A stretch of DNA of 32,000 nt from contig NZ_JQML01000001.1 in NCBI RefSeq assembly GCF_000744705.1, positions 2,768,017-2,800,016 of the forward strand, read 5' to 3'. Positions within the stretch are counted from its first letter, which is position 1; each line of letters starts with the position of its first letter. The notes below the pieces were generated by a model. That model made no database searches. It saw nothing but the letters and a program-made list of their open reading frames with translations, and was not told the origin of the DNA. Shown here piece after piece: positions 1-26,073 of the stretch. The DNA is from Streptacidiphilus albus JL83 (lineage in GTDB: Bacteria > Actinomycetota > Actinomycetes > Streptomycetales > Streptomycetaceae). A program made the translations under genes and the position numbers.

Positions 1-1033
1 AACGGGCGGACCAGGGAGACGACGGCACGGCCGCATCGGCCAGCACGGCCGCTGCGGCGTCGTCCACGCCCAGCAGCCGGGTGCGCAGCACGGCGGCCCG
101 GACAGCGGGGTCGGGCTCGTCCACCAGCGCGGGGCCGGCGGCGTTCCAGGCCCGGGCGAAGGCTGCGGCGCGGACCCCGAACATGCCCTCGCGGGCCTCC
201 AGGGCGGCGGCGACCGCGAGCGGCCGGGCCAGCACCCCGAGCAGCGGGTCGGCCAGCAGGGAGAGGGCGGGAGACGGCGGACCTGAATCCCCCGCCCTGG
301 CTATCGCCGTCCAGATCTCCGAGAGCAGGTCCTCCCCGGCCGAACGCAGGTCGAGGCGGCCGTCCGGGGTCATCGGCACCCTGGCGAGCAGGTCCACCAC
401 GCCGGCCGGCTCGGGCCGACCGGTCGGCCCGAGCGCCAGGCCCGGGCAGGGGTACGCGCCCGCGTCGGCCCCGCGCTTGGCGCACCAGGCGGCGAAGCGC
501 TGCCGGTCGGTCCACTGCGGGTCGTCCAGGTCGAGGACGGCCGCAGCCGCCGGGTCACCGAGCACGCGGGCCGCCGGACCGCCGGCGCCCGCCTCCACGA
601 TCAGCCTGACCTGCGGCAACTCCAGCATCGGCAGCAGCAGTCGAGTGATCAGTCGTTCGGGGTCGACCGCCCGGTCCAGCTCGGGCACGCAGACCACGGT
701 GCGCCGGTCGTCGGCGGCGAGCGCGGCGATCAACTCCTCGGGATCATGGGCGAGCAGACCGAGTTGCTGCGCCAGCGACCAGGCCGCGCCGCGTACGCCC
801 ACACCGTCGGCGGGCAGGACCGCGTGCACCCGCTGCTCGACCGGCGTCCCCGGGGTCGTGCAGGCCAGGAACAACCAGGCCAGCAGGTGCGATTTGCCCG
901 CCCCCGGCGCCCCGGCGACCCGGCAGAGCCGCGGTGCCGACGGGTCGTCCAACCATCCGAGCAGGGCCAGCCCCGCCGACCGCCGCCCCGCCCCGAGCGG
1001 CGGAATCCGTCGCCCCTCCACGACCGTGCCCAC
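1..1033 (-). CDS. P-loop NTPase, NACHT/STAND-like, N-terminal part (gene runs off the left edge)
   Basis: Absent from the supplied ORF track because no stop codon is reached. Hand translation of the minus strand from GTG at 1033 gives VGTVVEGRRIPPLGAGRRSAGLALLGWLDDPSAPRLCRVAGAPGAGKSHLLAWLFLACTTPG. It has a Walker A motif (GAPGAGKS) and a Walker-B-like TVVCVPELD about 60 aa later. The frame stays open for 344 codons down to position 1 and has GC-rich third positions. Confidence 0.6.
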   Translation of the reverse strand, partial: MGTVVEGRRIPPLGAGRRSAGLALLGWLDDPSAPRLCRVAGAPGAGKSHLLAWLFLACTTPGTPVEQRVHAVLPADGVGVRGAAWSLAQQLGLLAHDPEELIAALAADDRRTVVCVPELDRAVDPERLITRLLLPMLELPQVRLIVEAGAGGPAARVLGDPAAAAVLDLDDPQWTDRQRFAAWCAKRGADAGAYPCPGLALGPTGRPEPAGVVDLLARVPMTPDGRLDLRSAGEDLLSEIWTAIARAGDSGPPSPALSLLADPLLGVLARPLAVAAALEAREGMFGVRAAAFARAWNAAGPALVDEPDPAVRAAVLRTRLLGVDDAAAAVLADAAVPSSPWSAR

Positions 1034-1054
1034 GGTCCCTCCCGTTCGTCCCGG

Positions 1055-1162
1055 ACTTCCCGGCCCTGCGATTCCCAGCCCTGCGCTGCCAGCTTTGCGA
1101 TTCCCGGCCCTGCACTTCCCGGCCCTGCGATTCCCGGCCCTGCGCTGTCGGCTCTGTCCTGC
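1055..1162. repeat. Intergenic tandem repeat array, 13-mer core TTCCC(G/A)GCCCTGC
   Basis: The core occurs at 1057, 1072, 1101, 1116 and 1131, at spacings of 15, 29, 15 and 15 nt. It is organised as two higher-order units of about 50-59 nt (1055-1113 and 1114-1162). It fills the 143-nt gap between the stop at 1177 and the GTG at 1033. Confidence 0.85.
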
Positions 1163-1176
1163 TACCGCGCGCGGTA

Positions 1177-2052
1177 CTACTGCCGGTCGCGCAACTCTGC
1201 CACGCTGCGCATCAGCTCCTTCACGCCCGCCTCGCGCGAGGCGGCGGTTTCGCCGTAGTCGAAGCTGTGGGTGAACGCGGCGTTCGGAAACGTCCGGGCC
1301 ATCCACAGCGAGCAGTAGTGGCCCGGCATCATGCACGCCTCCAACTCGCAGTAGACCCGGGTGACCTGCTCCGCCCGGACGCCCTCGGCCCGCAGCCGGT
1401 ACCAGGCCAGCTCCTCGGGGTGCGGCAGGCCGATGCTCCCGATCGCGGTCGCGATCTGCTTCTCACCCCGACTGTCGAGGTACTCGAACGCCGCCGAGGA
1501 GTCGGTGTTGAGCGGCCTGCGCAGATCGTCCAGCACCCGGGGCCACCAGCTCTCCCGGTACTCGAACGCGGCGGCGTCCAGCGCGATCAGCGCCTGCCGC
1601 AGCTGCTGGTAGCCAGCCAGCGCCCCGGGGCGGTCCTCGGCGTCGCTCAGCGCCGGCAGCTGACGGTCCAGCAGCAGCAGGCCTTCGACGAAGGCCGCGA
1701 CGCTGCTGTTGACCGGCAGGTCCGGCAGCCCGGTGCCGAGCAGGGCCGCCCGGACGGAGCCGTCGGGCGCGAGGTAGAACTCCGCGCCCCGGTCGGTGCC
1801 GAGCCGCAGCTGACCGGCCATCGGCCCGGCCTCCTGGCCCTGCTGCTCCGCGTACTGCCCCAGCGCGAGCGGCTCAGCCGGACCTGCGGCGCTGAAGTAC
1901 ACCCCCACCTGCACCGGCAGCCCGGGCCCGCGCAGCGGCCCCTCCGGCGCGACGGGATTGCTCCGCAGCCCCTGCGCCCCGAAGTGCGCCAGCAGCGCGG
2001 CCGTCAGCTCGTCGCTCGTCATCGGTCGAGATCCATTCTCTGCTCGGTCCAT
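1177..2052 (-). CDS. SUKH-like N-terminal domain fused to a deaminase-fold C-terminal domain
   Basis: 291-aa ORF whose start lies 3 nt after the stop of the upstream paralog. The C-terminus LPHPEELAWYRLRAEGVRAEQVTRVYCELEACMMPGHYCSLWMARTFPNAAFTHSFDY aligns by eye with the toxin segment HSERSIGKPMLGGREMNVKELYTEREPCQASPNCKRWLGRYFEKANPGLSVTHGVKYD. Shared elements are HxE, then 23-25 aa, then (P/A)C..C, W(L/M), F and TH...Y. The N-terminal half contains FYLAPDGSVRAALLG...PVNSSVAAFVEGLLLLD, which resembles the C-terminal motif of SUKH immunity domains (recalled from memory). Confidence 0.6.
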   Translation of the reverse strand: MDRAENGSRPMTSDELTAALLAHFGAQGLRSNPVAPEGPLRGPGLPVQVGVYFSAAGPAEPLALGQYAEQQGQEAGPMAGQLRLGTDRGAEFYLAPDGSVRAALLGTGLPDLPVNSSVAAFVEGLLLLDRQLPALSDAEDRPGALAGYQQLRQALIALDAAAFEYRESWWPRVLDDLRRPLNTDSSAAFEYLDSRGEKQIATAIGSIGLPHPEELAWYRLRAEGVRAEQVTRVYCELEACMMPGHYCSLWMARTFPNAAFTHSFDYGETAASREAGVKELMRSVAELRDRQ

Positions 2053-2055
2053 CGC

Positions 2056-2625
2056 TCAGTACACGGGGTAGGAGTCGAGATATCTCTCCCAGAAGCCGTC
2101 CGCATCGGCAAAGGGAGTCACATCCCAGCGGGTGATCTTCTGCCGGATCGAGTCGACGGCCTCGCACCAGTCGAGGCCGTCCGGATCCTCTTCGTCCCTC
2201 GGCCGCTCCGCCTTCAGCAGGTACAGCATGTAGGCAAAGGAAGACACGTCCTGGTGCATCTTCTCGTACTCGATGTCGCAGTCGATGTCGGAGATCCAGA
2301 CCGAACCGTCGGCGGGATCGGTGAACACCTGGTTGTCGAAGATGACCCCGATGGGCTGGAAATTACCGTGCGGCGTGTCGACGGGCAGCGCCTCAAAGGG
2401 AATCGTGGATTCCTGGAAGGCAGTCGCCGAGGCCTCCGACTCCCGCACACTGATGCCCGCCAGAATCCTGAACGGGCCCTCGCCGCAGTGGAATCCGACC
2501 GTCGCTGCGAAGCTGGCGGCGGCCGCATCGCCCCAGATCCGGGCAGCGCAGTCGGGCCTCATCCTGACCGGGCTGCCAAGCGCCTTCTCGACGACGATCA
2601 CATCCCAGTCGACCTCTACCAGCAT
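2056..2625 (-). CDS. Tandem paralog 3 of 3, putative immunity protein (family unassigned, SUKH-like features)
   Basis: 189 aa from the ATG at 2625 (MLVEVDWDV...), with GAGGGGA about 8 nt upstream. It ends in SYPVY. It shares LV.VDW, RP..A.R.W, DG..W..D...EYE..H.D.SS..Y.L.LL..ERP and I..KIT.WD..P.A...G.W with the two neighbours. The ORF-track N-terminal extension to 2760 overlaps the previous gene and was rejected. Confidence 0.7.
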   Translation of the reverse strand: MLVEVDWDVIVVEKALGSPVRMRPDCAARIWGDAAAASFAATVGFHCGEGPFRILAGISVRESEASATAFQESTIPFEALPVDTPHGNFQPIGVIFDNQVFTDPADGSVWISDIDCDIEYEKMHQDVSSFAYMLYLLKAERPRDEEDPDGLDWCEAVDSIRQKITRWDVTPFADADGFWERYLDSYPVY

Positions 2626-2645: not shown

Positions 2646-3203
2646 TCAGTACATCGGATAGGAATCGAAGAACATTCCCCAGTAGCCACGGGGATCGGCA
2701 CACGGAAGATCGTCCCACCGAGTGATCTTTTCCGAAATGATGCGGATCGACTCCTCCCATTTCTCATAGGGTGCGTATCCACCTTCGACCGGCCTCTCGC
2801 TCTCCAATAGCAGCAGCAGGTAGACCAGCGACGACAGGTCCCGATGCACCTGCTCGTATTCGACATCACTATTGGAGTCGGAGAACCAGATCGTGCCGTC
2901 GGCCGTACTTACATAGAGTGCAGTGTCGTCGGAGAGCCAGCCGAACCGAAAGAGTCGACCGACCGGAGTCTCTTCCGGTTCCGACTCCGGCGAATTCTCA
3001 TAAGAATCTGCAGGCCGCCCCGGGTTCTCTCCGGCAACACCGGACAGCAAGGAGAAGAGCCCGCCGGTCCAAGGGATCCCGAACTCCGATGCGAACCGTG
3101 CGTCATCCGGATCGGGCCAGAGCCGTACAGCAAGCTCCGGACGAAACTTCAAGAGGTGCCCGCTCGGCACCTCCACTCTCGCCCAGTCAATTTTCACCAG
3201 CAC
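2646..3203 (-). CDS. Tandem paralog 2 of 3, putative immunity protein
   Basis: 185 aa from the GTG at 3203 (VLVKIDWARVEV...). It ends in SYPMY. The start was chosen by alignment with its neighbours. The ORF-track extension to 3431 overlaps paralog 1. Confidence 0.65.
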   Translation of the reverse strand: MLVKIDWARVEVPSGHLLKFRPELAVRLWPDPDDARFASEFGIPWTGGLFSLLSGVAGENPGRPADSYENSPESEPEETPVGRLFRFGWLSDDTALYVSTADGTIWFSDSNSDVEYEQVHRDLSSLVYLLLLLESERPVEGGYAPYEKWEESIRIISEKITRWDDLPCADPRGYWGMFFDSYPMY

Positions 3204-3231
3204 ACTACCCACCCTGCCCACCAGGTCGCGA

Positions 3232-3792
3232 TCAGTACATGAGATAAGACTCGAAGAATCTGCCCCAAAAGCCCTCGGCTTCGGCACAGGGAATCTCGTC
3301 CCAATGGGTGATCTTCGCTCGGATTCTTTCCTCTGCGGCAATCCAGTCACGCGTGTGCGGATCGCTCTCCGGCAGCGGGCGCTCCGCCTCCAAAAGGTAG
3401 AGCATGTACGACAACGAGGAGAGGTCCGCATGGATCAACTCGTACTCGGTCTCCGACTCCGGGTCTTCCACCCAGATACCGCCGTCGGCCGCGTGGGCGT
3501 AGAGAGTCCCGCCGTAGAGATCACCCAACGGCATGAGCTTTCCGTGCGGGGAGTCATGGGGCACGAACTCCGGCCCTACGACCGACGAGCCCCTGGGGTT
3601 GTCGGGATCTGCCACCCCCACTGCGGCGTACATCTGAAAGAGGCCTCGACAGTACGGGATCCCGAAATGCTCTGCGAACTGCGCGTCGTCCGGGTCGGCC
3701 CAGATCCGTGCAGCCACCTCCGGCCGAACCTTCAGGAGATGCCCACGCGGGATACCCGCCGCCACTGACGGCCAGTCCACCTTCACCAGCAC
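3232..3792 (-). CDS. Tandem paralog 1 of 3, putative cognate immunity protein of the deaminase toxin
   Basis: 186 aa from the GTG at 3792 (MLVKVDWPSV...), with GAGAGGAAG upstream. It ends in SYLMY. It is the first gene after the toxin stop, with an 89-nt gap. Sampled GC is about 55%. Confidence 0.7.
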   Translation of the reverse strand: MLVKVDWPSVAAGIPRGHLLKVRPEVAARIWADPDDAQFAEHFGIPYCRGLFQMYAAVGVADPDNPRGSSVVGPEFVPHDSPHGKLMPLGDLYGGTLYAHAADGGIWVEDPESETEYELIHADLSSLSYMLYLLEAERPLPESDPHTRDWIAAEERIRAKITHWDEIPCAEAEGFWGRFFESYLMY

Positions 3793-3881: not shown

Positions 3882-4736
3882 CTAGTCGAAAGCGCCATTG
3901 CCCATGGTGGGCGGGCGACCGGGGAGGCCGTGGTTGTCACGCAATGCGGCAATGTAGGCCTCGTGCCCGGCATTGCGTTCCTCCTTCCCCAGTGCAGCAT
4001 CGTACTTAACCCCATGAGTGACACTGAGACCCGGATTCGCCTTCTCGAAATAGCGCCCGAGCCATCGCTTGCAGTTGGGCGACGCCTGACAGGGCTCCCG
4101 TTCGGTGTAGAGTTCCTTTACATTCATCTCCCGGCCACCCAGCATCGGTTTCCCGATCGACCTCTCCGAGTGGTTCCGTGCGTAGGAGCTCTTTCCGACC
4201 AGGATAAATTCGTTTCCGTCGTCGTCGTGATACTTCAGCGCCGCATAGTTGCCACCGGAGTAGTCCCCCCGGGCGAATCTGGCATCCTCCACCGCTTTGG
4301 ACAGGTCGGTCGGCGCAGATATCTTGGTGCTCTGCACCCCGCTCTCACCGGGATTATTCTTGTCCTTGTTTCCGTGATACTTCTTCCTCATGTCCTCCGG
4401 CGAAGGGTCGACTGCCTTGTCGTCGGAGTCCAGGATGGTGCGGATGCCGGAGCTGTCGTCGGCGGTGATGGGGTGGAGTTCGCCGTCCTTGAGTGCCTGG
4501 ACCGAACCGTCGTCGTCGATGAAGTAGGTCTTGACGTTCTCGGCGTCCTTGCCGCCGGCGCGGGTCAGGTCCTTGGCGAGGCCGGCCTCGGTCTCCTCCA
4601 CGTTGCCGGCCACCTGCTCCGCGCCGTCGGCGACCGAGTGGAACGCGCGCTTCAGGGCGTTCTCGGTGTCGTGGACGGCCGGGACCAGGACCTCGTCGGT
4701 GCCGTTCTTGAGGGCGTTGGCTATCGCCTCGCTCAT
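3882..4736 (-). CDS. Polymorphic toxin with a C-terminal nucleic-acid/nucleotide deaminase-fold domain (SCP1.201/DddA-like by motif)
   Basis: 284 aa from the ATG at 4736 (MSEAIANALKNG...). There is no signal peptide. The C-terminal region reads YHDDDGNEFILVGKSSYARNHSERSIGKPMLGGREMNVKELYTEREPCQASPNCKRW, which gives HxE-x23-PCx5C. A sampled stretch in the 3' half has about 57% GC. The ORF-track extension to 5522 runs in another frame through the upstream gene and was rejected. Confidence 0.75.
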   Translation of the reverse strand: MSEAIANALKNGTDEVLVPAVHDTENALKRAFHSVADGAEQVAGNVEETEAGLAKDLTRAGGKDAENVKTYFIDDDGSVQALKDGELHPITADDSSGIRTILDSDDKAVDPSPEDMRKKYHGNKDKNNPGESGVQSTKISAPTDLSKAVEDARFARGDYSGGNYAALKYHDDDGNEFILVGKSSYARNHSERSIGKPMLGGREMNVKELYTEREPCQASPNCKRWLGRYFEKANPGLSVTHGVKYDAALGKEERNAGHEAYIAALRDNHGLPGRPPTMGNGAFD

Positions 4737-5446
4737 GTGTAGGTCACTCCCGCGAGCCGGCTGCTCAGCAGGGCGGCGTGACTGGACACCGTCTCGGCGT
4801 GGCCGCGCATCGTGGCGGCGTGGCCGCGCAGCTTCTCCGGGTGGACCGCGTAGCCGGGCCCCGTGCTGACGCCCAGCGCCCCTGCTGCGGCGTTGAAGAC
4901 GAAGCCCTCGATCGCCCGCTCGATCACCGGGCCCAGGGCCTTGAAGCCCGCCTCCACCACCTCGGAGATGATGTACTGCACCAACTGCTGTTCCAGGAAG
5001 TCCATCGCCTGCTCGGCGAGTTCGTCGGTGGCCACCGCGGCCGCCTCCGACGCACCGAAGGTGACCACCGCGGCCGCCTGCTCGGCGACGAACGCCGCTG
5101 CCAGGCCGACCAGTTCGGCGATGGCCGAGACCTTCATCGCGACTATGTAGTCGGCCGCGGCGTTCAGCGCGGTCACCACGTTGCGGCAGGCGTCCAGCAG
5201 TTCGGTCATGTGGGTGGCGGACATGTCCGCCCAGCGCTGGACCAGCTGCTGGTAGGAGTCGGCCTGGTAGGCGTCCCCCATCGCGCCGATGGTGTCGGTG
5301 GCGTCCTGGTGGGTGCTCTCGATGCTGTCCGCGAACTCCGCCACGAAGCCGGCCACCTCGCGCACCGTGTCCTCGTTGATCGACGGCCAGTTCACGCCGA
5401 TGAACTGAAGGAACTGCACCACCTCCGACGGCGGATCGAGCGCCAT
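4733..5446 (-). CDS. WXG100-like / CpnT-N-terminal-domain-like protein (putative toxin carrier or adaptor)
   Basis: 237 aa from the ATG at 5446, with GGGGGTGGGGG just upstream. It starts MALDPPSEVVQFLQFIGVNWPSINEDTVREVAGFVAEFADSI, followed by Ala-rich helical sequence. Its TGA stop overlaps the ATG of the toxin (ATGA at 4733-4736). Confidence 0.7.
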   Translation of the reverse strand: MALDPPSEVVQFLQFIGVNWPSINEDTVREVAGFVAEFADSIESTHQDATDTIGAMGDAYQADSYQQLVQRWADMSATHMTELLDACRNVVTALNAAADYIVAMKVSAIAELVGLAAAFVAEQAAAVVTFGASEAAAVATDELAEQAMDFLEQQLVQYIISEVVEAGFKALGPVIERAIEGFVFNAAAGALGVSTGPGYAVHPEKLRGHAATMRGHAETVSSHAALLSSRLAGVTYT

Positions 5447-5589
5447 CCCCCACCCCCCGACCGACACCTGAGTTCGATACTCGATCGAGCAGGCTGCCAC
5501 GGGGGTGGGATACAGTCAACATCGGTAAAGGAGAGGCAAATTGTTGCCTCCGACAGGTCGTGGACGCGGGTTTCTACAGGGGTGGGCAC

Positions 5590-5994
5590 ATGGAACTGGT
5601 GCAGGTGCGACTGGTTGTGACGGACTTCACCGCATGCTTCCGGTTCTACCGGGACGTGCTCGGACTGAAGCCGCAGGTGGACGACGAAGCCGGCCCCTAC
5701 GGGAAGTTCAGCCTCCCCGAGGGCAACGCCGCCATCGCGATCCAGCAGCGCGAGCACCTGGTGCAGAGCACCCCGTGGCTGCGCGGGGCCCCCGACGGCC
5801 GGGTGGACGGCCAGCTGCTGGTACTGAAGGTGGACGACGTCGACGCGGTGGTCGCCGACCTGCGCTCCCGGGGAGCGGAGTTCCTGGCGGAGCCGGAGAC
5901 CCAGTGGGAGCGGCTCCGGGTGGCGTACCTGCGGGACCCGGAGGGGAACCTGATCGAGTGGCAGCAGTGGCTGGCCCCCCGTCCCCCGCAGTAG
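5590..5994 (+). CDS. VOC family protein (glyoxalase/bleomycin-resistance/dioxygenase fold)
   Basis: 134 aa: MELVQVRLVVTDFTACFRFYRDVLGLKPQ...LRVAYLRDPEGNLIEW. This pattern is typical of VOC-family proteins. The start at 5590 was preferred over 5560. Confidence 0.8.
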   Translation: MELVQVRLVVTDFTACFRFYRDVLGLKPQVDDEAGPYGKFSLPEGNAAIAIQQREHLVQSTPWLRGAPDGRVDGQLLVLKVDDVDAVVADLRSRGAEFLAEPETQWERLRVAYLRDPEGNLIEWQQWLAPRPPQ

Positions 5995-6237
5995 GGCCCC
6001 GCAGTAGGGTCCCGCACTCACGCTCCGCACCCCGCACCCCGCACTGAGCGCTCGCCCTGAGCACTCGCACCGAGCGCTCGCCTGAGTACCCACGGAGCAC
6101 CCACGGAGCATCCGCGCCGAGCGCTGAACCCGTGCCGTGACGCTGCGGCGACCGCAGCGGCGCGACCAGGGTCGAACGCAGGTACGCTCACGCTCATCGG
6201 GCGTTCTTCGCCGCTCTCCCACCTGCGGAGTCCCACC

Positions 6238-12124: not shown

Positions 12125-12422
12125 GGGGAATCTCCTCGGAGGCGGAACGACGTACGCGGGGACGCGGAAGCGTCCCGACGCCTGCGGCAACATGCCCGCC
12201 CCGCAGTTCATTCCCGGTGCCGCGCGCCCGCTGCGCCCGCCCCGCGCCCCCGGTACGCCCGCAGTACGCCCGTGCCTTCGGCCGACGGAAAATTCGGTCG
12301 GCCGAATTGTCCGGTGGGCTGTGCCGTTGCCCCGTGAAAGGATGCGCGGGAATCAGCAGCACACGGTTGACCGTCCGCGCCCCTCACCCGGACGGACGAC
12401 GTCGAGGTTAGGGAGTAGCGCA

Positions 12423-15026
12423 GTGCCCGGGACCAATCTCACCCGCGACGAGGCCCGCGAGCGGGCCCGCATCCTCACGGTGGACAGCTACGACGTCCAG
12501 CTCGACCTGCGCTCTGCCGTCCTTCCCGTGGCGGAGGGACAGGGGGCCGGCCGGTTCGGCTCGCGCACCGTGCTGCGCTTCCGCTGCTCCGAGCCCGGCG
12601 CGGACAGCTTCGCCGACCTGCTCGCCCCCGCCGTCCGCAGCGTCGTCCTCAACGGCGTGGCGCTGGACCCGGCCGTGGTCTTCGACGGCTCCCGGGTCGC
12701 CCTGCCGGGGCTGGCCGAGACCAACGAGCTGGTCGTCGAGGCCGACTGCGCCTACAGCCGGAGCGGTGAGGGTCTGCACCGCTTCACCGACCCGGTCGAC
12801 GGCGAGACCTACCTCTACACCCAGTACGAGCCGGCCGACGCCCGCCGGGTCTTCGTGACCTTCGAACAGCCGGACCTCAAGGCCCCGTTCAGCTTCACGG
12901 TGACCGCCCCGGCGCACTGGGAGGTCTTCTCCAACTCCCCCGCCGGCGGTGACCCCGACGCCGTGGAGTCCGGGCTGACCTGGAGCTTCTCGCCGACGCC
13001 GCGGATCTCCAGCTACATCACCGCCGTCGTCGCCGGTCCGTACCACGTCGCCCGCGACCACTACAGCCGAGTGCTGGAGGACGGCCGCCGGCTGGAGATC
13101 CCGCTGGCCGCGATGTGCCGCAAGTCGCTGGCCAAGCACTTCGACTCGGACGAGATCTTCACCGTCACCAAGCAGGGCCTGGACTTCTTCCACCAGGAGT
13201 TCGACTACCCCTACCCCTTCGGCAAGTACGACCAGGCCTTCGTCCCCGAGTACAACATCGGCGCGATGGAGAACCCCGGCCTGGTCACCTTCCGCGAGGA
13301 GTACGTCTTCCGCTCCAAGGTGACCGAGGCCGCCTACGAGGGCCGCGCCAACGTCATCCTGCACGAGATGGCGCACATGTGGTTCGGCGACCTGGTCACC
13401 ATGCAGTGGTGGGACGACCTCTGGCTGAAGGAGTCCTTCGCGGACTTCATGGGCGCCTTCACCCAGGTCGCGGTGACCAAGTACGGCGCCGGCTGGATCA
13501 CCTTCGCCAACCGCCGCAAGGCCTGGGCCTACCGCCAGGACCAGCTGCCGACGACCCACCCGATCACCGCGGACATCCGCGACCTGGAGGACGCCAAGCT
13601 CAACTTCGACGGCATCACCTACGCCAAGGGCGCCTCGGTGCTCAAGCAGCTGGTGGCCTACGTCGGCCGGGACGCCTTCTTCGAGGGCGCGCGCCGCTAC
13701 TTCAAGCGCCACGCCTTCGGCAACACCACCCTGGCCGACCTGCTCGCCGTCCTCGCCGAGACCTCCGGGCGCGGCGCGGAGGCCATGGCCGAGTGGTCCC
13801 GCGCCTGGCTGGAGACGGCCGGCGTGAACGCGCTGACGCCGCAGCTGGTGACCGACGCCGAGGGCCTGATCACCGGCTTCGCGGTGCTGCAGGAGGCCGC
13901 CGAGAGCCACCCGACGCTGCGGCCCCATCGGGTGGCCATCGGCCTCTACGACCGCGACGAGGACGGCCGGCTGGTCCGCACCCACAAGGCCGAGCTGGAC
14001 GTCGCGGGCCCGCGCACCGAGGTCCCGGAACTGGTCGGGCTCGCCCGCCCGGCCCTGGTCCTGGTCAACGACGAGGACCTGACGTACTGCAAGATCCGCT
14101 TCGACGAGAACTCGCTGGCGACGCTGCGTGACGGCCTTGGCGACGTCGCCGACCCGCTCGCCCGCGCGCTGTCCTGGTCCGCGCTGTGGAACATGACCCG
14201 CGACGGGCTGATGCCGGCCCGCGACTACCTCGGCCTGGTGCTGCGCTTCTCCGGCCGGGAGAGCGACATCGGCGTCCTCCAGTCGCTGCACCAGCAGGCC
14301 AAGACCGCCCTGGACATGTACGTCACCCCGGAGCACCGGCCGGAGTGGGCCGCGCGGCTCGCCGAGGGCGCGCTGCGCGAGCTGCGCGCCGCCGCGCCCG
14401 GTGGCGACCACCAGCTGGCCTGGGCCCGGTTCCTGGCCCAGACGGCGACCTCCGAGGCCGACCTCCAGCTGGTCTCCGGACTGCTCGCGGGCACCGCCCG
14501 GATCGACGGCCTCGACGTCGACCAGGAGCTGCGCTGGGCGCTGCTGCACACGCTGGCCGCCGAGGACGTGGCCGGCGAGGAGGAACTGGCGGCGGAGCTG
14601 CGCCGGGACGACACCGCCAGCGGCAAGCGGCAGCTGACGGCCTGCCAGGCCGCCCGGCCGACGGCGGAGGCCAAGGCCGGCGCCTGGCACCGGGTCGTCG
14701 AGACCGACGAGCTGCCGAACGCCCTGGTGGAGGCCGAGATCAGCGGCTTCCAGCAGGCCGGTCAGCGCGACCTGGTCGCCCCCTACGCGGAGCCCTACTT
14801 CGAGGTGCTGGAGAAGGTCTGGGCCGAGCGCTCGATCGAGATCGCGATGCGGATCGTCAGCGGCCTCTTCCCGCGTCTGGTCACCACGGAGCGGACGCTG
14901 GAGCAGACCGACACGTGGCTCTCCGAGCACGAGGACGCGGCCCCGGCGCTGCGCCGCCTGGTCCTGGAGTGCCGCGACGACCTCGCCCGGGCCCTCCGCG
15001 CCCAGGCCAGCGACGCGGCCCACTGA
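12423..15026 (+). CDS. pepN: Aminopeptidase N, M1 family (copy 1)
   Basis: 867 aa from the GTG at 12423, with AGGGAG upstream. It carries the GAMEN motif and HEMAHMWFGD...WLKESFA (HExxH+E). The ORF-track extension to 11898 overlaps the divergent gene. Confidence 0.93.
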   Translation: MPGTNLTRDEARERARILTVDSYDVQLDLRSAVLPVAEGQGAGRFGSRTVLRFRCSEPGADSFADLLAPAVRSVVLNGVALDPAVVFDGSRVALPGLAETNELVVEADCAYSRSGEGLHRFTDPVDGETYLYTQYEPADARRVFVTFEQPDLKAPFSFTVTAPAHWEVFSNSPAGGDPDAVESGLTWSFSPTPRISSYITAVVAGPYHVARDHYSRVLEDGRRLEIPLAAMCRKSLAKHFDSDEIFTVTKQGLDFFHQEFDYPYPFGKYDQAFVPEYNIGAMENPGLVTFREEYVFRSKVTEAAYEGRANVILHEMAHMWFGDLVTMQWWDDLWLKESFADFMGAFTQVAVTKYGAGWITFANRRKAWAYRQDQLPTTHPITADIRDLEDAKLNFDGITYAKGASVLKQLVAYVGRDAFFEGARRYFKRHAFGNTTLADLLAVLAETSGRGAEAMAEWSRAWLETAGVNALTPQLVTDAEGLITGFAVLQEAAESHPTLRPHRVAIGLYDRDEDGRLVRTHKAELDVAGPRTEVPELVGLARPALVLVNDEDLTYCKIRFDENSLATLRDGLGDVADPLARALSWSALWNMTRDGLMPARDYLGLVLRFSGRESDIGVLQSLHQQAKTALDMYVTPEHRPEWAARLAEGALRELRAAAPGGDHQLAWARFLAQTATSEADLQLVSGLLAGTARIDGLDVDQELRWALLHTLAAEDVAGEEELAAELRRDDTASGKRQLTACQAARPTAEAKAGAWHRVVETDELPNALVEAEISGFQQAGQRDLVAPYAEPYFEVLEKVWAERSIEIAMRIVSGLFPRLVTTERTLEQTDTWLSEHEDAAPALRRLVLECRDDLARALRAQASDAAH

Positions 15027-15081: not shown

Positions 15082-16203
15082 TCACTCGGCTGATCCCTCG
15101 ACCACCCGCTCGGCTGCCGGCCCGGCGGACGGCCCGGCTGCACGCTCAGCCGTCAGTCCGGCTGCCGGCTCGGCTGCCGCCGGGGCGTAGCGGGCAGCCA
15201 ACGCGCGTGCAGTCTCGGCCATGCGGGCCCGAAGCTGCGGTGGTCCGAGAACCTCGACCTCCGTGCCCAGTCCGAGGAAGACCTCGTGGGCGTGGTCGAG
15301 GGACTCAATGGGCAGCACCGCACGGGTCCAGCCGTCCGGCTCGGCGGTACCGGTTTCGGCCAGCGCCCGGGCGACGGCTCCGGTGAGGCGGGACGCGGCG
15401 CGCGGGGAAACGCGGACCACCGCTTCGTCCGCGTACAGCCGGGCGTGGAAGTCCGCCTGCTGGCGCTGCCAGTAGTCGGCCAGGTCGAAATCCTCCGGAG
15501 GTTGGAACTCCTCCTCCCGGACCGTGAGTTCGAGGATCTGATCGACCCGGTAGGTACGGGCCCGCCGGTCCGCGTTGCGCTCCGGATCGCGTTCCTGCCT
15601 CTGCCTCTGCCTCTGCCCCTGCCCCTGCCCCTGCCCCGCGACCAGGTACCAACGGCCGGCCTTGAGCACCAGGCCGTACGGCTCCAGGCACCGGTCCACG
15701 TCGGTGGGCTCCTTCCAGCGCCGGTATCGGACGTCGAGCACCCGGCTGCGCCACACCGCGTCCGCGACCCGGGACAGCTGCGGGGTGTCGTCGTCCTCCG
15801 CGTACCAGCCGGGCGCGTCCAGGTGGAATCGGGAGCTCATCCGGTCCGCCTGCGCGCGCAGCTCGGGCGGGAGCGCCGCGCGCAGCTTGAGCTGGGCGCC
15901 TGCGAGGGCCGTGCCGAGCCCGAGCTCGGCGGCCGGCCCCGGGATGCCGGAGAGGAACAGCGCCTCCGCCTCGCCGGCGCTCAGCCCGGTCAGCCGAGTG
16001 CGGTAGCCGTCGAACAGCTGGTAGCCGCCGGAGTGCCCGGCATCTCCGTAAAGGGGTACGCCCGCCGCGTGCAGCGACTCGATGTCGCGGTACACGGTGC
16101 GGATCGACACCTCCAGCTGCTCAGCGAGTTGAGCGGCGGTCATCCGGCCCCGGGTCTGCAGCATCAGCAGGATCGACAGCAGACGGCTCGACTTCACTGA
16201 CAC
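15082..16203 (-). CDS. YafY-type HTH plus WYL-domain transcriptional regulator
   Basis: 373 aa. The N-terminus SRLLSILLMLQTRGRMTAAQLAEQLEVSIRTVYRDIESL is the HTH region, and GRWYLVAG...RTYRVDQI is the WYL core. The WYL core is interrupted by a GQ/RQ repeat. Confidence 0.85.
   Translation of the reverse strand: MSVKSSRLLSILLMLQTRGRMTAAQLAEQLEVSIRTVYRDIESLHAAGVPLYGDAGHSGGYQLFDGYRTRLTGLSAGEAEALFLSGIPGPAAELGLGTALAGAQLKLRAALPPELRAQADRMSSRFHLDAPGWYAEDDDTPQLSRVADAVWRSRVLDVRYRRWKEPTDVDRCLEPYGLVLKAGRWYLVAGQGQGQGQRQRQRQERDPERNADRRARTYRVDQILELTVREEEFQPPEDFDLADYWQRQQADFHARLYADEAVVRVSPRAASRLTGAVARALAETGTAEPDGWTRAVLPIESLDHAHEVFLGLGTEVEVLGPPQLRARMAETARALAARYAPAAAEPAAGLTAERAAGPSAGPAAERVVEGSAE
15595..15636. 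repeat. In-frame hexanucleotide microsatellite, (CTGCCT)3(CTGCCC)4
   Basis: Read directly from the sequence. On the minus strand it encodes GQGQGQGQRQRQRQ inside the WYL domain. Confidence 0.9.
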
Positions 16204-16221: not shown

Positions 16222-16716
16222 TCCTACGGTCCAGCCATGGCTTTCACGGAGAAATCGCTACTGGTGCTTCCACCGATCGAGGTGGGCGTTCGCCGGATCA
16301 AGCGCTACCACGTCAGCGGGGACCCGGCCGGCATCGAACCCGCAGTCGAGAAGGCGGCGTACGCGATCCTGCCCGAACTTCTGCCGGAGCCGGACGGCAC
16401 ACCGACTGCCTCCTTCGTCGTCCTCCACCGGGGAGGGGACGACGGCGCCTATCTGAACGTCTACAGCTGGGCGTGGGACAACGCCGTGCACTTCGCCGGG
16501 GCGGCGGCAGGCCAGCCGGTGCTGGGCTGCCCGGACACGGACCCGACGCACTTCGTCCGACTGGACGGGTCGCTGATCGGCTGTGTCTGGGAGCTTCCGC
16601 CGATCCTCCACGAACGTGACGCCTGGGTACGCCACATGCTCGTGCCCGACCGACCCGACCTGGCCGCATACCTCGCCGACTCGCTCGCCGAGGGCACGAC
16701 GGGAGACCGCGCATGA
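16207..16716 (+). CDS. Hypothetical protein, divergent from the WYL regulator
   Basis: 169-aa ORF with good GC3 bias. The alternative start at 16237 (MAFTEKS...) is equally plausible. No family recognised. Confidence 0.55.
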   Translation: MSVKSSYGPAMAFTEKSLLVLPPIEVGVRRIKRYHVSGDPAGIEPAVEKAAYAILPELLPEPDGTPTASFVVLHRGGDDGAYLNVYSWAWDNAVHFAGAAAGQPVLGCPDTDPTHFVRLDGSLIGCVWELPPILHERDAWVRHMLVPDRPDLAAYLADSLAEGTTGDRA

Positions 16717-16833
16717 ACGACTTCGACTTCTTCACCGATACCTGGGACGTCGCCAACCGATAGCTGACGTAAATGCCACGTTATAGGCGTCGAAGCGCAC
16801 CGGTTCCGCGCCCCAGAGGCCACAAAAGGCGAG

Positions 16834-17229
16834 TCAGCAGTCCCCGATCTCCATGAGCGCGTCGATGTACTCCCTCTCGCTGACCCCCAGCTCCCTGCGA
16901 TCAAGGCTCTTGATAGGTTCAAAGAACTGCATGCCGAAGAGCCCGGTATCCGAGATTTCACCGAGTGCGTGCAATTCGTCTTCGCGACAGCCCGGGTCGG
17001 ACTCCACCACGGCAATTGTCGACAGGGTCATGGCAAGTAGCCTGACCTGGAATTGGTCGAACGCAGTGACCCAGTCAGTGATGGTCCCACATGCAGCACT
17101 TCGTTCATCGCGGCTTTTCGAGGTCAACCCCCGAACAAGGTCCAACAATTCTGAATTGCCTACTGACACGATCTTCCCCGCTCTCCGACGGTAGGTATTC
17201 ACTAAAGTCCTGGAAATTCCGAGGGCCAT
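16834..17229 (-). CDS. Putative immunity protein for the Rhs C-terminal toxin
   Basis: 131 aa. It would be 111 aa from the GTG at 17169, which has GGAGAGCGGGGAAG upstream. The gene sits immediately 3' of the Rhs gene, overlapping its stop by 28 nt if the start is 17229. GC is about 54% and the protein is acidic. No family recognised. Confidence 0.55.
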   Translation of the reverse strand: MALGISRTLVNTYRRRAGKIVSVGNSELLDLVRGLTSKSRDERSAACGTITDWVTAFDQFQVRLLAMTLSTIAVVESDPGCREDELHALGEISDTGLFGMQFFEPIKSLDRRELGVSEREYIDALMEIGDC

Positions 17230-20200
17230 GGCATATGAGTGTTGTTGGCTGCCGTCGGATTGTAGTGCGGACTGTTGGGATTGTGGACGTTGGGATGGAA
17301 CAGATTTCCGTCAATGTCTTGGTAGCGCTTGCCCACCTGAACCCTGTAGACGTCTCCCGTTGCTGCGTGCGAGCCAACCGGTGCTGTTCCGTCGGGTCCA
17401 TGAGCCCGGAGACGCACCGTGTTGCCGTCGTCGTCCGACCATTTGAACTCCACGCCATACTGGGCGCCGCCGTTCGAATGTGGCGTGAGCCATCGCACCT
17501 CTGCATCGTCCGGAACGATACTCATCGGGTCCTTTCCTCGAAGATCGTAGCCATGAGCCGGATTCTTCGCCGCTTGCTGAGGACCAGCCGTCTCGTGGGG
17601 TGAGAGGCCGAGAGGATCAGTCCAGGTGTGGGGGTTGCTGACGTAGGTGTCGGGGTTCGGGGCGGGGGTGAGGCCGAGGGGGTCGGGGGTGGTGTAGCGG
17701 GCGGTTTCGGGGTCGTAGTAGCGGTTGAGGTTGTAGTGGAGGCGGGTTTCGGGGTCGTAGTACTGCCCCGGGAAACGGAGGGGGGTGTAGGTGGTGCTGT
17801 CGCGCGGCCAGGTGGTGTTGCCCCAGAGGGTGGTGGTGGCGCGCCAGGCGATGGTGCCGGTGGCCGGGTCGAGGAGTTCGGTGGGGGTGCCGACGAGGTC
17901 GGTGACGATGGCGAAGAAGCGGCGGTCGATCCGGGCCTGGTCGTCCTGGGCACTGGGGGTGGTGATGGTCTCGGTCTGGGTGAGAGGGGTGAAGCCCTGG
18001 TGGTCCCACGTGATGGTGTGGGGGCCGGGAAGGTGGGATGCGTGGGTGGTCTGCTCGGTGAGGGTGGGGCCGTCCCAGGTGAAGTCGGTGCGCTCGACGA
18101 CGGTCTGTCCGTCGGCGGCCAGGCGGGACTTGGCGAGCCGGCGGCCCAGGGGGTCGTAGTGGTAGCGCCACTGGGTGCCGTCGGGGGTGGTGACCTGGGC
18201 GAGCTGGTTCTCGGCGTTCCAGGTGTAGTGCCAGCTGTCGGGCTTGCGGGACAGCCGGGTGACCTGGCGCAGGGTGACCCGGCCGGCGGCGTCGTGTTCG
18301 TAGCGGACGCGTCCGGCGGTGGTCAGCTGGGTGCCGGTGTAGGTGCGGCTGCCTTGGGCGAGAGTGCCGGCCGGGGTGGCCGGCCACTGGGCGTCGGTGA
18401 GGTTGCCGGCGGGGTCGTAGGCGTAGCTCTCGGTCCAGTCGGCGGCGCGGACGGCGGTGACACGCCCGGCGGGGTCGAGGTCGAAGCTGCGCGGGCCGGT
18501 GAGGTGGTCCTCGGTGCCGGTGAGGTTGCCGTCGCTGCGGTAGCGGTAGGCGCGGCGCTGGAGGACGGTCTCGCCCGCCTGGACCGTTTGACCAGTGAGA
18601 CGGGTGAGCTGGTCCCATTCGTTGGTCAGGGTGAGGGTGCCGGCGATGGTGCGGCGGCGTTCGCGTCCGGCCGGGTCGTGGGCGAAGTCGAGGGTGCCGC
18701 CGGTGGAGGCGAGGGTGGTGACCTGTCCGGCCGGGTCGTAGGCGTAGAGGGTGCTGTGGCCGGTGGGGGTGGTGCGCCGGGTGCGCCGGCCCAGGGGGTC
18801 GCGGCTGTGGTTGAGGGCGCGGCCGTTGACGGACTCGCCGAGCAGGTTGCCGAGCGGGTCGTAGGCGCGGGATATCTCGGCGTCGGTGTTGGCGGCGTGG
18901 ACGAGGCGGCCGGCGGGGTCGTAGGCGTAGCTGGTGGTGCGGCCGTCGGCGGCCTTGGCGACGGTGCGGCCGAGGATGTCGTACCGGTAGTCGGTCCGGA
19001 TGCCCAGGGGGTCGGTCAGCGCGGTCAACTGGCCTGCGGCGTCGCGCTGGTAGCGCACCGAGCGGCCGTGGAAGTCGTCCTCGCCGATGAGCTGTCCAGC
19101 GGCGTCGTAGAGGTATCTCCACTGCCGTCCCAAGGGGTCGGTGACGGCGGTGAGTTGCATGTGGGCGTCGTGGGTGAAGGCGATCCGGGCGCCGTCGGGA
19201 CCGGTGCGCGCGGCCAGGGTCTCGAAGTGGGTGTACTCGTAGCTGGTGGCCTGCCCCAGTTCATCGGTGTGGACGAGGAGGTTGCCTTCGCCGTCCCACT
19301 GCCAGGTCTGGGTGGAGCCGTCGGCAGCAGTGCGGGTCGCCGGTCGGCCCTCCACGGTCCAGGTCGTCCGGGTGACCGCGCCCAGGGCGTCGGTGAGTGT
19401 GACGGGTCGGCCGAAGGCGTCGCGTTGGCAGCGGACCGTGGCGCCGTTCGGGTCGGTGCTCTCGACCGGCAGTCCGGCGGCGTCGCAGCGGATGCGGGTG
19501 GTGTGGCCGAGGGCGTCGGTGACGGCGGCGAGGTGGCCGGCGGCGTCGTAGGCGTAGTGGGTGGTGGCGCCCAGGGGGTCGGTCAGGGTGGTGCGGCGGC
19601 CTTGGGCGTCGTACTCCTGCTGCCAGGCAGCGCCGTCGGCGTCCACGACCACGGTGGGCAGGCTGAGTTCGGCGTCGTAGGCGGCGGTGGCCCGGGAGCC
19701 GTCGGGGCGGGTGACGGCGGTGAGGTCGCCTTCGGCGTCGTAGTCGAAGCGGACGGTGCGGCCCAGGGGGTCGGTCTCGGTCAGCAGGCGGTCGTACTCG
19801 TCGCGTTGGTAGTGGGTGGTGTGGCCGAGGGGGTCGGTCCGGGCGGTGACCTGGTGGCGGTCGTTGATCCGGTAGGCGGTGGTGTGGCCCAGGGCGTTGG
19901 TCTCGGTGTGGACGCGCAGGCCGGTGTCGGGGTCGGGTTCGCCGTAGCTGAACTGGAAGCGCAGGGAGCCGTCGGCGCCGCCCTCGTCGATGACGCGGTT
20001 GCGGTCGTCGTAGGTGTACCAGTAGTGGCTGTTGTTGCGGTCGGTCCAGGAGGTGATCCGGCCCCAGGCGTCGTTGGCGAACCGCATCGGCAGGCCGGAG
20101 GAGTTGTAGACCTCGGTGAGGTGGCCGTCGGTGTAGCCGTAGCGCATCAGGCTCTGGTCGCCGCCGTCGGGGGCGGCGCCGGCCAGCAGGAGTTCGGTGA

Positions 20201-21035
20201 TGCGGCCGTACGCGACGGTGACCAGCAGGCGGTAACCGCCGGAGTGGGTGATCGAGAGAGGGGTGCCGTTGCGGTCGTAGTCGAGGTCGTAGTGGCGTCC
20301 TGAGCGGTCGCGGACCTGGGTGAGCAGGGCGGTGGCGCCGTCGGGTTGGACGGTGAACTCGCGGGCCAGGCCGCTGGCGCGGTCGGTGAGGGTGTAGAAG
20401 CGCTCCGCGTCGTCGACGGTCAGGTCGCGCCGGACTCCCGCGCTGGCCTGGACGGCCTGTCCGGGGGCGGGGTGGGGATAGGCCTGGGTGCGGCGGTCCG
20501 CGCCGAGGTGGACCACGCCCTGGTCGTCGATCTCCAGCCGTTCGTCGAAGGTGCAGACCCAGCGGCGGCCCATCCAGCGGCCCGCCCGGTAACCGGACTC
20601 GAAGCAGCGGGTGAACAGCAGCGGCAGCGAGCCGGGGAGGGAGGCGTCGGTCTGGTCGATGAACATCCGGCCGGTGGCCATGTCGACGGGCTCGCCGCCG
20701 TCGCAGACCGCGTTCTCGGCGCGTCCGGCGTCCTGCGGGTCGGAGACCTGGTCGCGCCCCGCGCCGGGGCCACTGTCGCCCGTGTCCCCGCCTACCGGAC
20801 CGGGGTCCTCGGGGTGGGGGTCGCCCACGGAGGGTTCTCCGCCGGGGCGTTCGGCGGACTTGGTGAGGTCGTCGACGGTCTTGGCCTCGTTGTCGGCGGC
20901 GTTGTCCGCGACCTGTCCGGCCTTCTCCTCGGTGTCCTTGAGAATGCCGTGGTAGGCGTCGGAGAAGTCCTTCGACAGGCCCTGTTCGGCCTTCTTCGCA
21001 GCATCTTCCAACGCGTGGGCTATCGCCTCGCTCAT
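17202..21035 (-). CDS. Rhs/YD-repeat polymorphic toxin with a variable 133-aa C-terminal tip
   Basis: 1277 aa from the ATG at 21035 (MSEAIAHALEDA...). GEPVDMATGRMFIDQTD is an N-terminal element typical of Rhs proteins. There are about 27 YD-type repeats (YAYDPAGR, YDPLGNLL and others). The core-end motif is RFPGQYYDPETRLHYNLNRYYDPETARYTTPDPLGL...YVSNPHTWTDPLGL, followed by an unrelated low-GC tail at 17205-17603. The ORF-track start at 21200 adds an Arg/Pro-rich extension and was rejected. Confidence 0.9.
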   Translation of the reverse strand: MSEAIAHALEDAAKKAEQGLSKDFSDAYHGILKDTEEKAGQVADNAADNEAKTVDDLTKSAERPGGEPSVGDPHPEDPGPVGGDTGDSGPGAGRDQVSDPQDAGRAENAVCDGGEPVDMATGRMFIDQTDASLPGSLPLLFTRCFESGYRAGRWMGRRWVCTFDERLEIDDQGVVHLGADRRTQAYPHPAPGQAVQASAGVRRDLTVDDAERFYTLTDRASGLAREFTVQPDGATALLTQVRDRSGRHYDLDYDRNGTPLSITHSGGYRLLVTVAYGRITELLLAGAAPDGGDQSLMRYGYTDGHLTEVYNSSGLPMRFANDAWGRITSWTDRNNSHYWYTYDDRNRVIDEGGADGSLRFQFSYGEPDPDTGLRVHTETNALGHTTAYRINDRHQVTARTDPLGHTTHYQRDEYDRLLTETDPLGRTVRFDYDAEGDLTAVTRPDGSRATAAYDAELSLPTVVVDADGAAWQQEYDAQGRRTTLTDPLGATTHYAYDAAGHLAAVTDALGHTTRIRCDAAGLPVESTDPNGATVRCQRDAFGRPVTLTDALGAVTRTTWTVEGRPATRTAADGSTQTWQWDGEGNLLVHTDELGQATSYEYTHFETLAARTGPDGARIAFTHDAHMQLTAVTDPLGRQWRYLYDAAGQLIGEDDFHGRSVRYQRDAAGQLTALTDPLGIRTDYRYDILGRTVAKAADGRTTSYAYDPAGRLVHAANTDAEISRAYDPLGNLLGESVNGRALNHSRDPLGRRTRRTTPTGHSTLYAYDPAGQVTTLASTGGTLDFAHDPAGRERRRTIAGTLTLTNEWDQLTRLTGQTVQAGETVLQRRAYRYRSDGNLTGTEDHLTGPRSFDLDPAGRVTAVRAADWTESYAYDPAGNLTDAQWPATPAGTLAQGSRTYTGTQLTTAGRVRYEHDAAGRVTLRQVTRLSRKPDSWHYTWNAENQLAQVTTPDGTQWRYHYDPLGRRLAKSRLAADGQTVVERTDFTWDGPTLTEQTTHASHLPGPHTITWDHQGFTPLTQTETITTPSAQDDQARIDRRFFAIVTDLVGTPTELLDPATGTIAWRATTTLWGNTTWPRDSTTYTPLRFPGQYYDPETRLHYNLNRYYDPETARYTTPDPLGLTPAPNPDTYVSNPHTWTDPLGLSPHETAGPQQAAKNPAHGYDLRGKDPMSIVPDDAEVRWLTPHSNGGAQYGVEFKWSDDDGNTVRLRAHGPDGTAPVGSHAATGDVYRVQVGKRYQDIDGNLFHPNVHNPNSPHYNPTAANNTHMPWPSEFPGL

Positions 21036-21184: not shown

Positions 21185-21412
21185 CCGTACCCCCGAACAC
21201 ACGAACCCGTGACCGTGGGGCTCACGCTACCAAGACTCACAAGCCCATTTGCAGCGAAGTGAGTTGACCCTCGCTCCAGGCTCACGTCCCATTGACGGCC
21301 ACCATGTGACGGCTCGACGGCCACCGCCACGGACCGCCTGCCGTGAGCCCCGAGGGCTGCCCCTACGATGTCTCGGGTTCGAGAACGGTCGACGGATAGG
21401 GCGTGGCGGGGG

Positions 21413-24491: not shown

Positions 24492-24594
24492 GACCCGCCC
24501 CAATCGTCCTGTTTCATGGCGCTGGCTCCACAGGCACTCCTGTGGAGCCAGCAGGACCATACTCACACTTCCTGGGATCGCCTCGTGCGGGTCG

Positions 24595-26028: not shown

Positions 26029-26073
26029 GTCGTTCCCTCCCCCATCGTGCTCACTGTTGCCTCTGCTCTTCCG

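Follow-up and report, generated by a model that had tools for sequence, protein, structure and literature searches.

Toxins of the XOO_2897 deaminase clade, SUKH-4 immunity proteins, WXG-type trafficking domains and their association with RHS proteins were catalogued computationally in 2011-2012, and the clade is found in type VII secretion system (T7SS), RHS and SUKH4 contexts (Iyer, Zhang, Aravind 2011, PMC3239186; Zhang 2012, PMC3482391). In these surveys, the WXG trafficking domain is the toxin's own N-terminus. Partner-assisted export of T7SS toxins is also established: helical partners form composite T7SS signals with LXG toxins (LXG–Lap; PMC9600955, PMC10801868) and, since 2026, with the actinobacterial Eat toxins (Eat–Tap, ESX-4; PMC13444075). 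Here, a 32,000-nt stretch of the Streptacidiphilus albus JL83 genome (the whole stretch is called the window) was analysed, in which gene A, encoding an all-helical protein of the WXG100_2 type, overlaps gene B, encoding a predicted deaminase toxin that begins with a short helical adaptor. With a probability of roughly 70%, we read the locus as a polymorphic toxin in two parts, encoded beside its own immunity genes and probably exported by a type VII system; the binding of A to B, the export route and the substrate are what we infer within this reading. The new element is the division of labour, as the large helical domain is a separate protein from a coupled gene, and one module pair serves both RHS cages and small deaminases. 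A literature search, of incomplete coverage, found no paper on this split architecture. The sequence features, namely the Pfam matches, the invariant motif residues and the recurring overlap, exceed chance. The genes and segments concerned are as follows.

4733..5446, minus strand: gene A, 237 aa, WXG100_2 / CpnT-N-terminal type, all-helical carrier or partner
3882..4736, minus strand: gene B, 284 aa, helical adaptor plus predicted XOO_2897-clade deaminase toxin
4733..4736, minus strand: ATGA stop/start overlap of A and B, three bases being common to TGA and ATG
4542..4736, minus strand: B residues 1-65, helical adaptor (hidden Markov model (HMM) of partner N-termini, E=1.4e-19)
3882..4541, minus strand: B residues 66-284, globular toxin in which a pre-toxin beta region is combined with the deaminase, from Pfam, model confidence (pLDDT) and GC content at third codon positions (GC3)
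3232..3792, minus strand: SUKH-4 gene 1, 186 aa, 89 nt downstream of B, Pfam E=1e-15
2646..3203, minus strand: SUKH-4 gene 2, 185 aa, GTG start at 3203, Pfam E=2.6e-12
2056..2625, minus strand: SUKH-4 gene 3, 189 aa, ATG start at 2625, Pfam E=9e-12
1177..2022, minus strand: SUKH-4–XOO_2897 fusion, 281 aa from M11 (open reading frame (ORF) 1177..2052, 291 aa), from Pfam
1..1180, minus strand: 5' part of a Walker-A NTPase / WD40-like gene, cut by the window start, from phmmer to the copy in the closest relative

Similar to the surveyed XOO_2897/SUKH-4 toxins, the locus shows the same PF14440 domain, the clade marks, SUKH-4 genes and T7SS/RHS contexts; the difference is that the trafficking domain is here a separate coupled gene and that the toxin keeps an adaptor of ~65 aa. 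The Mycobacterium tuberculosis CpnT system (esxF-esxE-cpnT-ift; PMC8593097) has in common with it a WXG100_2-type domain, an actinobacterial origin, a C-terminal toxin and a downstream immunity gene. In contrast, CpnT is a single chain with EsxE/EsxF upstream, is an NAD+ glycohydrolase (TNT), has a host target and crosses a mycolic outer membrane, whereas the locus has two genes with a 4-nt overlap and, as the 5' neighbour of A, a divergent glyoxalase gene. The order of helical partner, toxin and immunity gene, the polymorphic C-termini and, as proposed here, a multi-protein helical signal are shared with LXG–Lap and Eat–Tap, while the proportions are inverted: LXG and Eat toxins carry a helical domain of ~200 aa and have partners of ~90-120 aa, but the partner here is 237 aa and the toxin contributes ~65 aa. 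Neither A nor B matched an LXG or Lap family in Pfam or NCBIfam, and both are unrelated in sequence to LXG, Lap and Tap; the locus resembles these systems in logic only. With DddA/SCP1.201 and SsdA-type toxins, B shares a zinc deaminase centre of the HxE...PCxxC type, a cognate immunity gene and, if the proposed export holds, secretion; those toxins belong to the C-terminal-hairpin division, use the type VI route and have another immunity family, whereas B falls in the helix-4 division together with AID/APOBEC.

The sequence of the pair was verified directly. By translation, the protein of gene A opens with MALDPPSEVVQFLQFIGVNWPSINEDTVREVAGFV (in longer quotation, MALDPPSEVVQFLQFIGVNWPSINED), and B carries YHDDDGNEFILVGKSS at residues 169-184, followed by H189-S-E191, x23 and P215-C216-x5-C222. 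The plus-strand TCAT at 4733-4736 is ATGA on the minus strand, where the TGA of A occupies 4735..4733 and the ATG of B 4736..4734, and GGGAG lies 10 nt 5' of this ATG. The opening of the 237-aa ORF, the ATGA at 4733-4736 and the HSE-x23-PCx5C signature, all given in a preliminary description of the window, are accurate in every detail on the minus strand. An independent public assembly of identical sequence (Logan, SRR29904083) likewise yields genes of 237 and 284 aa that overlap in this way, so that the indel fusing both ORFs, which that description had named as fatal to the split, is absent there. Downstream, B, the SUKH-4 genes and the fusion gene follow one another on one strand with intergenic gaps of 20-89 nt, and such a run fits one operon. 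The 5' side of gene A consists of a 113-nt gap and then the divergent glyoxalase-family gene. A promoter and terminator scan of 1000-5700 found no minus-strand promoter, and terminators were at chance level.

The split was then followed across relatives. More than 441 homologues of A were found, and among the best 120 almost every one is a free-standing protein of ~240 aa, the sources being Kitasatospora, Streptacidiphilus, Streptomyces and related genera; several genomes hold multiple A copies, such as Kitasatospora sp. GAS204B with the paralogous pairs L023, L028 and L064. Contigs from one genome per species contained 281 A-family loci, of which 80 were fetched (L001-L080). A B-type helical N-terminus of ~60 aa opens the next gene in 68 of these 80 loci, and the identical 4-nt stop/start overlap, [A/G/T]TGA, is present in 61 of the 68 partnered loci, in several genera. 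Both the C-terminus of A (...LAGVSFE-stop) and the M-S-x start of B are conserved among homologues. The overlap is consistent with translational coupling of A and B. Therefore, the two separate overlapping genes of the preliminary description are borne out, by direct reading of the ATGA and by its recurrence, but its view of the split as an exception to normal fusion has to be reversed, as the 61 of 68 loci with overlap and the nearly always free-standing A homologues make the split the conserved rule in this subfamily.

The partner genes fall into classes of very different size. RHS toxins of ~1,270 aa, ending in Pput2613-deam, Endonuclea_NS_2 or DUF3990, are the partner in 44 loci, and short partners of <400 aa (most 260-345 aa), in which the adaptor is joined to an XOO_2897 or YwqJ deaminase, occur in 23 loci; the window pair belongs to the latter class. 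The adaptor of the window is nearest to adaptors of Actinocrinis RHS partners, and since its closest relatives sit on RHS toxins, the adaptor is a module not bound to one kind of cargo. Divergence in A is strongly mirrored by divergence in the adaptor (Mantel r=0.83, p<=0.0005).

The B family is small, with 21 matches in an indexed search and 80 cluster representatives in an exhaustive one, mostly short like B; P0021 has the adaptor segment alone in common with B. Six relatives of 519-591 aa combine an N-terminal WXG100_2 with a C-terminal XOO_2897-deam domain in one chain, and P0018 (495 aa) also has the WXG100_2 plus XOO_2897 architecture in precomputed Pfam annotation. These single-chain relatives are only about 27% identical to A and B placed end to end, yet colinear with them throughout, and the end of A aligns to a short loop between the segment matching the C-terminal helix of A and the segments matching the adaptor helices. 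The two-gene form therefore arose by fission, or the single chain by fusion, inside what is one helical domain.

In roughly one in ten A-family loci, no recognisable B-type partner stands directly downstream, and partner or coupling deviates in L006, L010, L011, L019, L021, L022, L031, L032 and L045. In a Streptacidiphilus subgroup, A ends in TAG and the partner, where present, starts 14-88 nt later with no overlap. Such partnerless or gapped loci may represent orphan carriers or a different coupling mode. Programmed -1 frameshifting to an A–B fusion was also considered and rejected, as no slippery heptamer is present at the junction, which reads C ACA TGA here and C GAA TGA in relatives.

Over residues 161-255, the toxin part of B was assigned by Pfam to XOO_2897-deam (PF14440; E=1.1e-15; score 58.0 bits, cut-off 27), and at E<=1 B had no Pfam match to a further deaminase family, SCP1.201 (PF14428) included. 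Since XOO_2897-deam is the sole match, B is not an SCP1.201/DddA-clade enzyme. Four marks set the XOO_2897 clade apart: an E placed between strand 3 and helix 3, an aromatic residue that follows strand 4, an end after helix 4 and the absence of strand 5 (Iyer 2011, PMC3239186). All four marks are present in B, as E212, Y245, a chain end after helix 4 and no strand 5. In detail, the modelled order is strands 164-170 and 176-182, helix 190-198, strand 206-213, helix 222-231, strand 238-243 and helix 251-269; the chain ends in helix 4 with none of the C-terminal hairpin of the SCP1.201/DddA clade. H189, S190, E191, E212, P215, C216, C222 and Y245 are invariant in 20 homologues of B, the catalytic and zinc residues H189, E191, C216 and C222 being encoded at about 4071-4172, and the AlphaFold model places the HxE and PCx(n)C residues at helix N-termini. 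In Foldseek searches of the PDB, APOBEC3C (E=0.035), APOBEC1 and APOBEC3H ranked ahead of DddA (E=0.11, TM 0.34). These results place B in the XOO_2897 clade, within the AID/APOBEC-like "helix-4" division. The deaminase-fold toxin of the preliminary description thus stands, with a domain match and intact zinc and catalytic residues, whereas its SCP1.201/DddA-like placement does not.

The first ~65 residues of B form a different unit. The monomer model has pLDDT >90 over residues 66-284 (about 70-280) and <50 over residues 1-65, which are nevertheless predicted helical; a segment that is helical yet modelled with low confidence alone suggests that it needs a partner. Its GC3 of 0.98 is close to that of A, and the local HMM of partner N-termini matches it at the E value listed above. 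B is therefore not the bare warhead described before, as this conserved helical adaptor, common with RHS toxins, precedes the deaminase.

For A, the Pfam scan returned WXG100_2 (PF25547; 36.2 bits, cut-off 27, E=7.3e-9, residues 17-139), and the match to Pfam WXG100 (28.5 bits) was barely over its cut-off of 27.3. Several homologues are named 'outer membrane channel protein CpnT-like N-terminal domain' in UniRef. With these names, the scans of both proteins that the preliminary description had proposed agree with its WXG100-like, CpnT-N-terminal-type protein upstream and a deaminase downstream. At 237 aa, A is not a canonical WXG100/ESAT-6 protein, that is, a helix-turn-helix of ~100 aa with a central W-x-G. 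The AlphaFold2 model (mean pLDDT 72, moderate) shows six helices, with a long hairpin at 25-59 / 64-129 and a C-terminal helix at 203-232. An Ala-rich hydrophobic hairpin near residues 100-135, at the tip of the long helical hairpin, is the best-conserved stretch of A in the homologue alignment; K105, I109, E111, L112, A116, F119, A121, Q123-A125, T129 and G131 are invariant, and KD19 hydropathy peaks at 1.9 around 109-121. Foldseek of A against the PDB gave generic long-helix proteins only (BAR domains, ciliary proteins; all E>0.01), and a profile search of PDB sequences with the A family gave no meaningful match.

The genes behind B were compared with those of the closest relative, L001, which is a metagenome-assembled genome and shows 92-94% identity in the flanking DNA. 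Amino acid identity to L001 was 95% for A and 95% for B 1-65, vs. 74% for B 66-284, and the fusion gene was about 92% identical in DNA. The GC3 values dipped over the same part, from 0.94 in A and 0.98 in B 1-65 to 0.78 in B 66-284 and 0.70-0.86 in the SUKH-4 genes, and were 0.95 in the fusion gene. The SUKH-4 genes are not colinear with those of L001, gene 1 of the window best matching the third SUKH-4 gene there. A constant A and adaptor with diverged toxin and immunity genes are the usual polymorphic toxin signature, with the boundary just after the adaptor, and it is secreted polymorphic toxins that characteristically show SUKH-4 arrays and divergence of this cassette-like kind (PMC3113570). 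In accordance, A and the adaptor are found with XOO_2897, YwqJ and RHS plus Pput2613, Endonuclea_NS_2, DUF3990 or Ntox30 cargo, and the downstream immunity array, the fast divergence of the cassette and the GC3 dip across it are all present. From these comparisons, A and the adaptor are predicted to be the constant part, and the toxin domain with the immunity genes the exchangeable cassette.

The paralogs that the preliminary description had noted downstream do exist, with their nature unrecognised at that stage: Pfam identifies three SUKH-4 paralogs directly downstream of B and a SUKH-4–deaminase fusion. SUKH-4 gene 1, in which no signal peptide was seen by eye, is presumed to be the cognate immunity gene of B; the start of gene 2 was placed by paralog alignment and HMM. 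At the other edge of the operon, the glyoxalase/VOC-family gene 5' of A (5560..5994, plus strand) is absent in L001 (window 5547..6130 vs. L001 5770-5901), a difference that amounts to an insertion or deletion right at the operon edge.

Based on these features, a route from the gene pair to the target can be proposed. A and the B adaptor, their translation being coupled at the ATGA, would assemble into one helical bundle, and this two-chain bundle would recreate the N-terminal domain that the fused relatives and CpnT hold in one chain. A type VII (ESX) system would recognise the bundle as its targeting signal, and the bundle may also be the device that takes the toxin across the membrane. Once exported, the deaminase would enter a competitor cell, deaminate cytosine in nucleic acid, most likely single-stranded DNA (ssDNA), and kill or mutagenise that cell, while the cytoplasmic SUKH-4 proteins encoded just downstream would protect the producer. 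Activity on ssDNA has been seen in base-editor assays of other XOO_2897-clade members, which acted as ssDNA cytidine deaminases (bioRxiv 10.1101/2023.05.21.541555). In this scheme the binding of A to B, T7SS dependence, co-secretion, the substrate and the target are inferred.

Export by a type VII system is considered probable from the membership of A in the WXG100_2 family and from the lack of a Sec signal in both A and B. About 18 kb from A–B, the window also carries, within a small gene set, an S8 protease that resembles mycosin (TIGR03921 E=2e-75) and bears a membrane anchor at its C-terminus:

23103..26478, minus strand: type VII-associated set, comprising the mycosin-like protease, a 477-aa WXG100/PPE-like protein and a 134-aa helical protein

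The 477-aa protein has a WXG100/PPE-like N-terminus and a Gly/Pro-rich tail. In L047 (Streptacidiphilus sp. N8-3; type VII set at 1657-5123), the mycosin set and the gene of a PQQ-like beta-propeller protein (window 21368..23053, plus strand) adjoin an A–B(RHS) pair.

Several observations weigh against the reading as an exported bipartite toxin. The score of A in the NCBIfam WXG100 model TIGR03930 was 21.5 bits, below the cut-off of 44.85; A lacks a canonical WxG, with the turn Y60-Q-A where the family consensus is YQG; and in its sole YxxxE, the T7SS motif (Y158), only 8 of 30 homologues keep the E at +4. The Foldseek search of A, which is uninformative on such kinship, matched no structure of the Esx, PE/PPE or LXG kind. 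No T7SS core ATPase EccC was found within the window, the mycosin match of 254 bits is just under the NCBIfam cut-off of 278.75, and a mycosin cluster lies within 6 kb in just one of the 80 related loci. The fold matches of B to deaminases are all weak, the best being the APOBEC3C hit, and a profile search of PDB sequences with the B family found no sequence-related solved structure; the proposed activity on cytosine is extrapolated from other clade members. Finally, co-divergence of neighbouring A and adaptor can come from linkage alone. The YxxxE motif was looked for in the B adaptor as well, and none was found.

Further, a second module accompanies the XOO_2897-type toxins. The SUKH-4–XOO_2897 fusion protein carries an N-terminal SUKH-4 (1.8e-14) and a C-terminal XOO_2897-deam domain (4.1e-23) with intact HPE...C...C in Pfam, and belongs to a family of >329 homologues with the same architecture, in which conservation of the HPEE and CEL(e)pC..PGHYC catalytic motifs reaches at least 95%. 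Directly behind the fusion gene there is always one of ~560-650 aa with a Walker-A N-terminus and a WD40-like C-terminus, for which the Pfam matches to NACHT, AAA_16 and WD40 are weak and sub-threshold; the window fragment matches the L001 copy at E=1.9e-201 in phmmer. The pair was located at these positions:

window 1..2052, minus strand: fusion plus NTPase/WD40 pair
L001, 9623-12423: the same pair
L081 (the locus of a fused toxin), 4290-6847: the same pair

It accompanies the toxin genes, at a distance of up to about 3 kb and on either side of them, in 21 of 21 XOO_2897-type loci of L001-L080 as well as in L081 and the window, but in no RHS-class or YwqJ-class locus. The pair might be an intracellular conflict system or a source of toxin/immunity cassettes. 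PADLOC, run on A, B, the SUKH-4 proteins, the fusion protein and DUF6348, gave nothing credible, the lone match being a weak one of A to Cas11e (E=0.0068).

The constancy of this link raises the question of whether A and B are secreted at all, or form an intracellular toxin-antitoxin or abortive-infection-style module tied to the fusion and the NTPase/WD40 protein. The pair stands within about 3 kb at every XOO_2897-type locus examined, no secretion machinery is adjacent to A–B, and neither A nor B has a signal peptide, all of which would suit an intracellular function. A and the adaptor nevertheless carry RHS toxins with classic polymorphic C-termini at 44 loci that have no fusion/NTPase pair, the SUKH-4 arrays and the cassette-like divergence mark secreted polymorphic toxins (PMC3113570), and PADLOC offered no convincing defence family; we consider this explanation quite improbable. 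Still less remains of the idea that A and B are one ordinary single-chain toxin broken by frameshift, sequencing error or pseudogene decay, which is effectively refuted. Single-chain WXG100_2 plus XOO_2897 proteins do exist, and the B frame runs on without a stop well upstream of its ATG, within an ORF of 546 aa, as is common in high-GC DNA; but the split and its 4-nt overlap recur in 61 of 68 loci of several genera, the C-terminus of A and the start of B are conserved, the fused relatives are just about 27% identical to A+B, and the gene calls are identical in the independent assembly. Given the recurrence of the split together with that assembly, neither a frameshift confined to this locus nor a fault of assembly can account for it.

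The role of A leaves room for another alternative, namely that it is mainly a membrane translocator or pore, like the CpnT N-terminal domain or EsxE/EsxF, and not a signal partner: its hairpin would insert in the producer or target membrane and carry the toxin, the adaptor just docking the cargo. Conservation within A is highest in the Ala-rich hydrophobic hairpin at the tip of the modelled long hairpin, with KD19 up to 1.9 and still more hydrophobic in the fused relatives; the UniRef names point to a CpnT-like channel, and an EsxE/EsxF channel is needed for CpnT export (PMC8593097). Because this most conserved stretch is borderline-hydrophobic, a membrane or translocation role is a live alternative or addition. 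However, the hairpin contains conserved charges (E111, D/E122, E134) and is just a borderline transmembrane helix, Streptomycetaceae have no mycolic outer membrane, and a pore role is compatible with a signal role rather than exclusive of it. As the main role of A, translocation is thus regarded as unlikely, and the bipartite toxin with an A–adaptor export signal is preferred.

A wider proposal, which we put forward tentatively and hold to be rather doubtful as a whole, joins both modules: A and the ~65-aa adaptor would be a general, cargo-independent ESX export/translocation platform of the Streptacidiphilus family (Streptomycetaceae), and the XOO_2897 plus SUKH-4 cassettes would derive from, or be functionally tied to, the fusion and NTPase/WD40 module. 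The cargo of such a platform would range from large RHS cages to small deaminases, and each genome would have several specific pairs of A and adaptor. The resident SUKH-4–deaminase fusion with its STAND-like NTPase/WD40 protein could, in turn, be a widespread, intracellular, undescribed conflict or defence system.

Antibacterial type VII toxins have been proved experimentally in Actinomycetota only recently, in mycobacteria. Streptomyces-type bacteria are major soil competitors, and experimental work on this toxin family was not found in the literature searched. A and a 65-residue adaptor reused for varied cargo would offer a tractable model for helical-bundle ESX targeting and possibly a tool for exporting chosen proteins. 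The predicted deaminase of ~220 residues, from the clade nearest AID/APOBEC, with no solved relative and three candidate natural inhibitors, is raw material for base editors. The invariably linked SUKH-4–deaminase and NTPase/WD40 pair is a separate lead in its own right.

Elsewhere in the window, a second toxin gene uses the same type of adaptor:

17202..21035, minus strand: RHS toxin, 1,277 aa, with DUF6531, RHS repeats, RHS core and C-terminal Ntox30

It opens with MSEAIAHALEDAAKKAEQGL..., matched by the adaptor HMM at E=1.5e-16. No A-family gene lies upstream of it, the window having just one A gene; as the adaptor is of the Streptacidiphilus type, the cognate A may lie elsewhere in the genome. 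Just 3' of the RHS toxin, a 184-aa ORF (16461..17015, minus strand) with no family match may be its immunity gene, and about 1 kb downstream of the 3' end of the RHS gene lies an HTH_11–WYL–WCX regulator (15082..16203, minus strand). Regulators of the WYL type frequently accompany loci of defence or conflict. Two genes of the M1-family aminopeptidase N type are also present, at ~12400..15026 and 26653..29250, both on the plus strand; the second was identified by Pfam (Peptidase_M1 and ERAP1_C), the first by eye only, from an HEMAHMWFGD motif.

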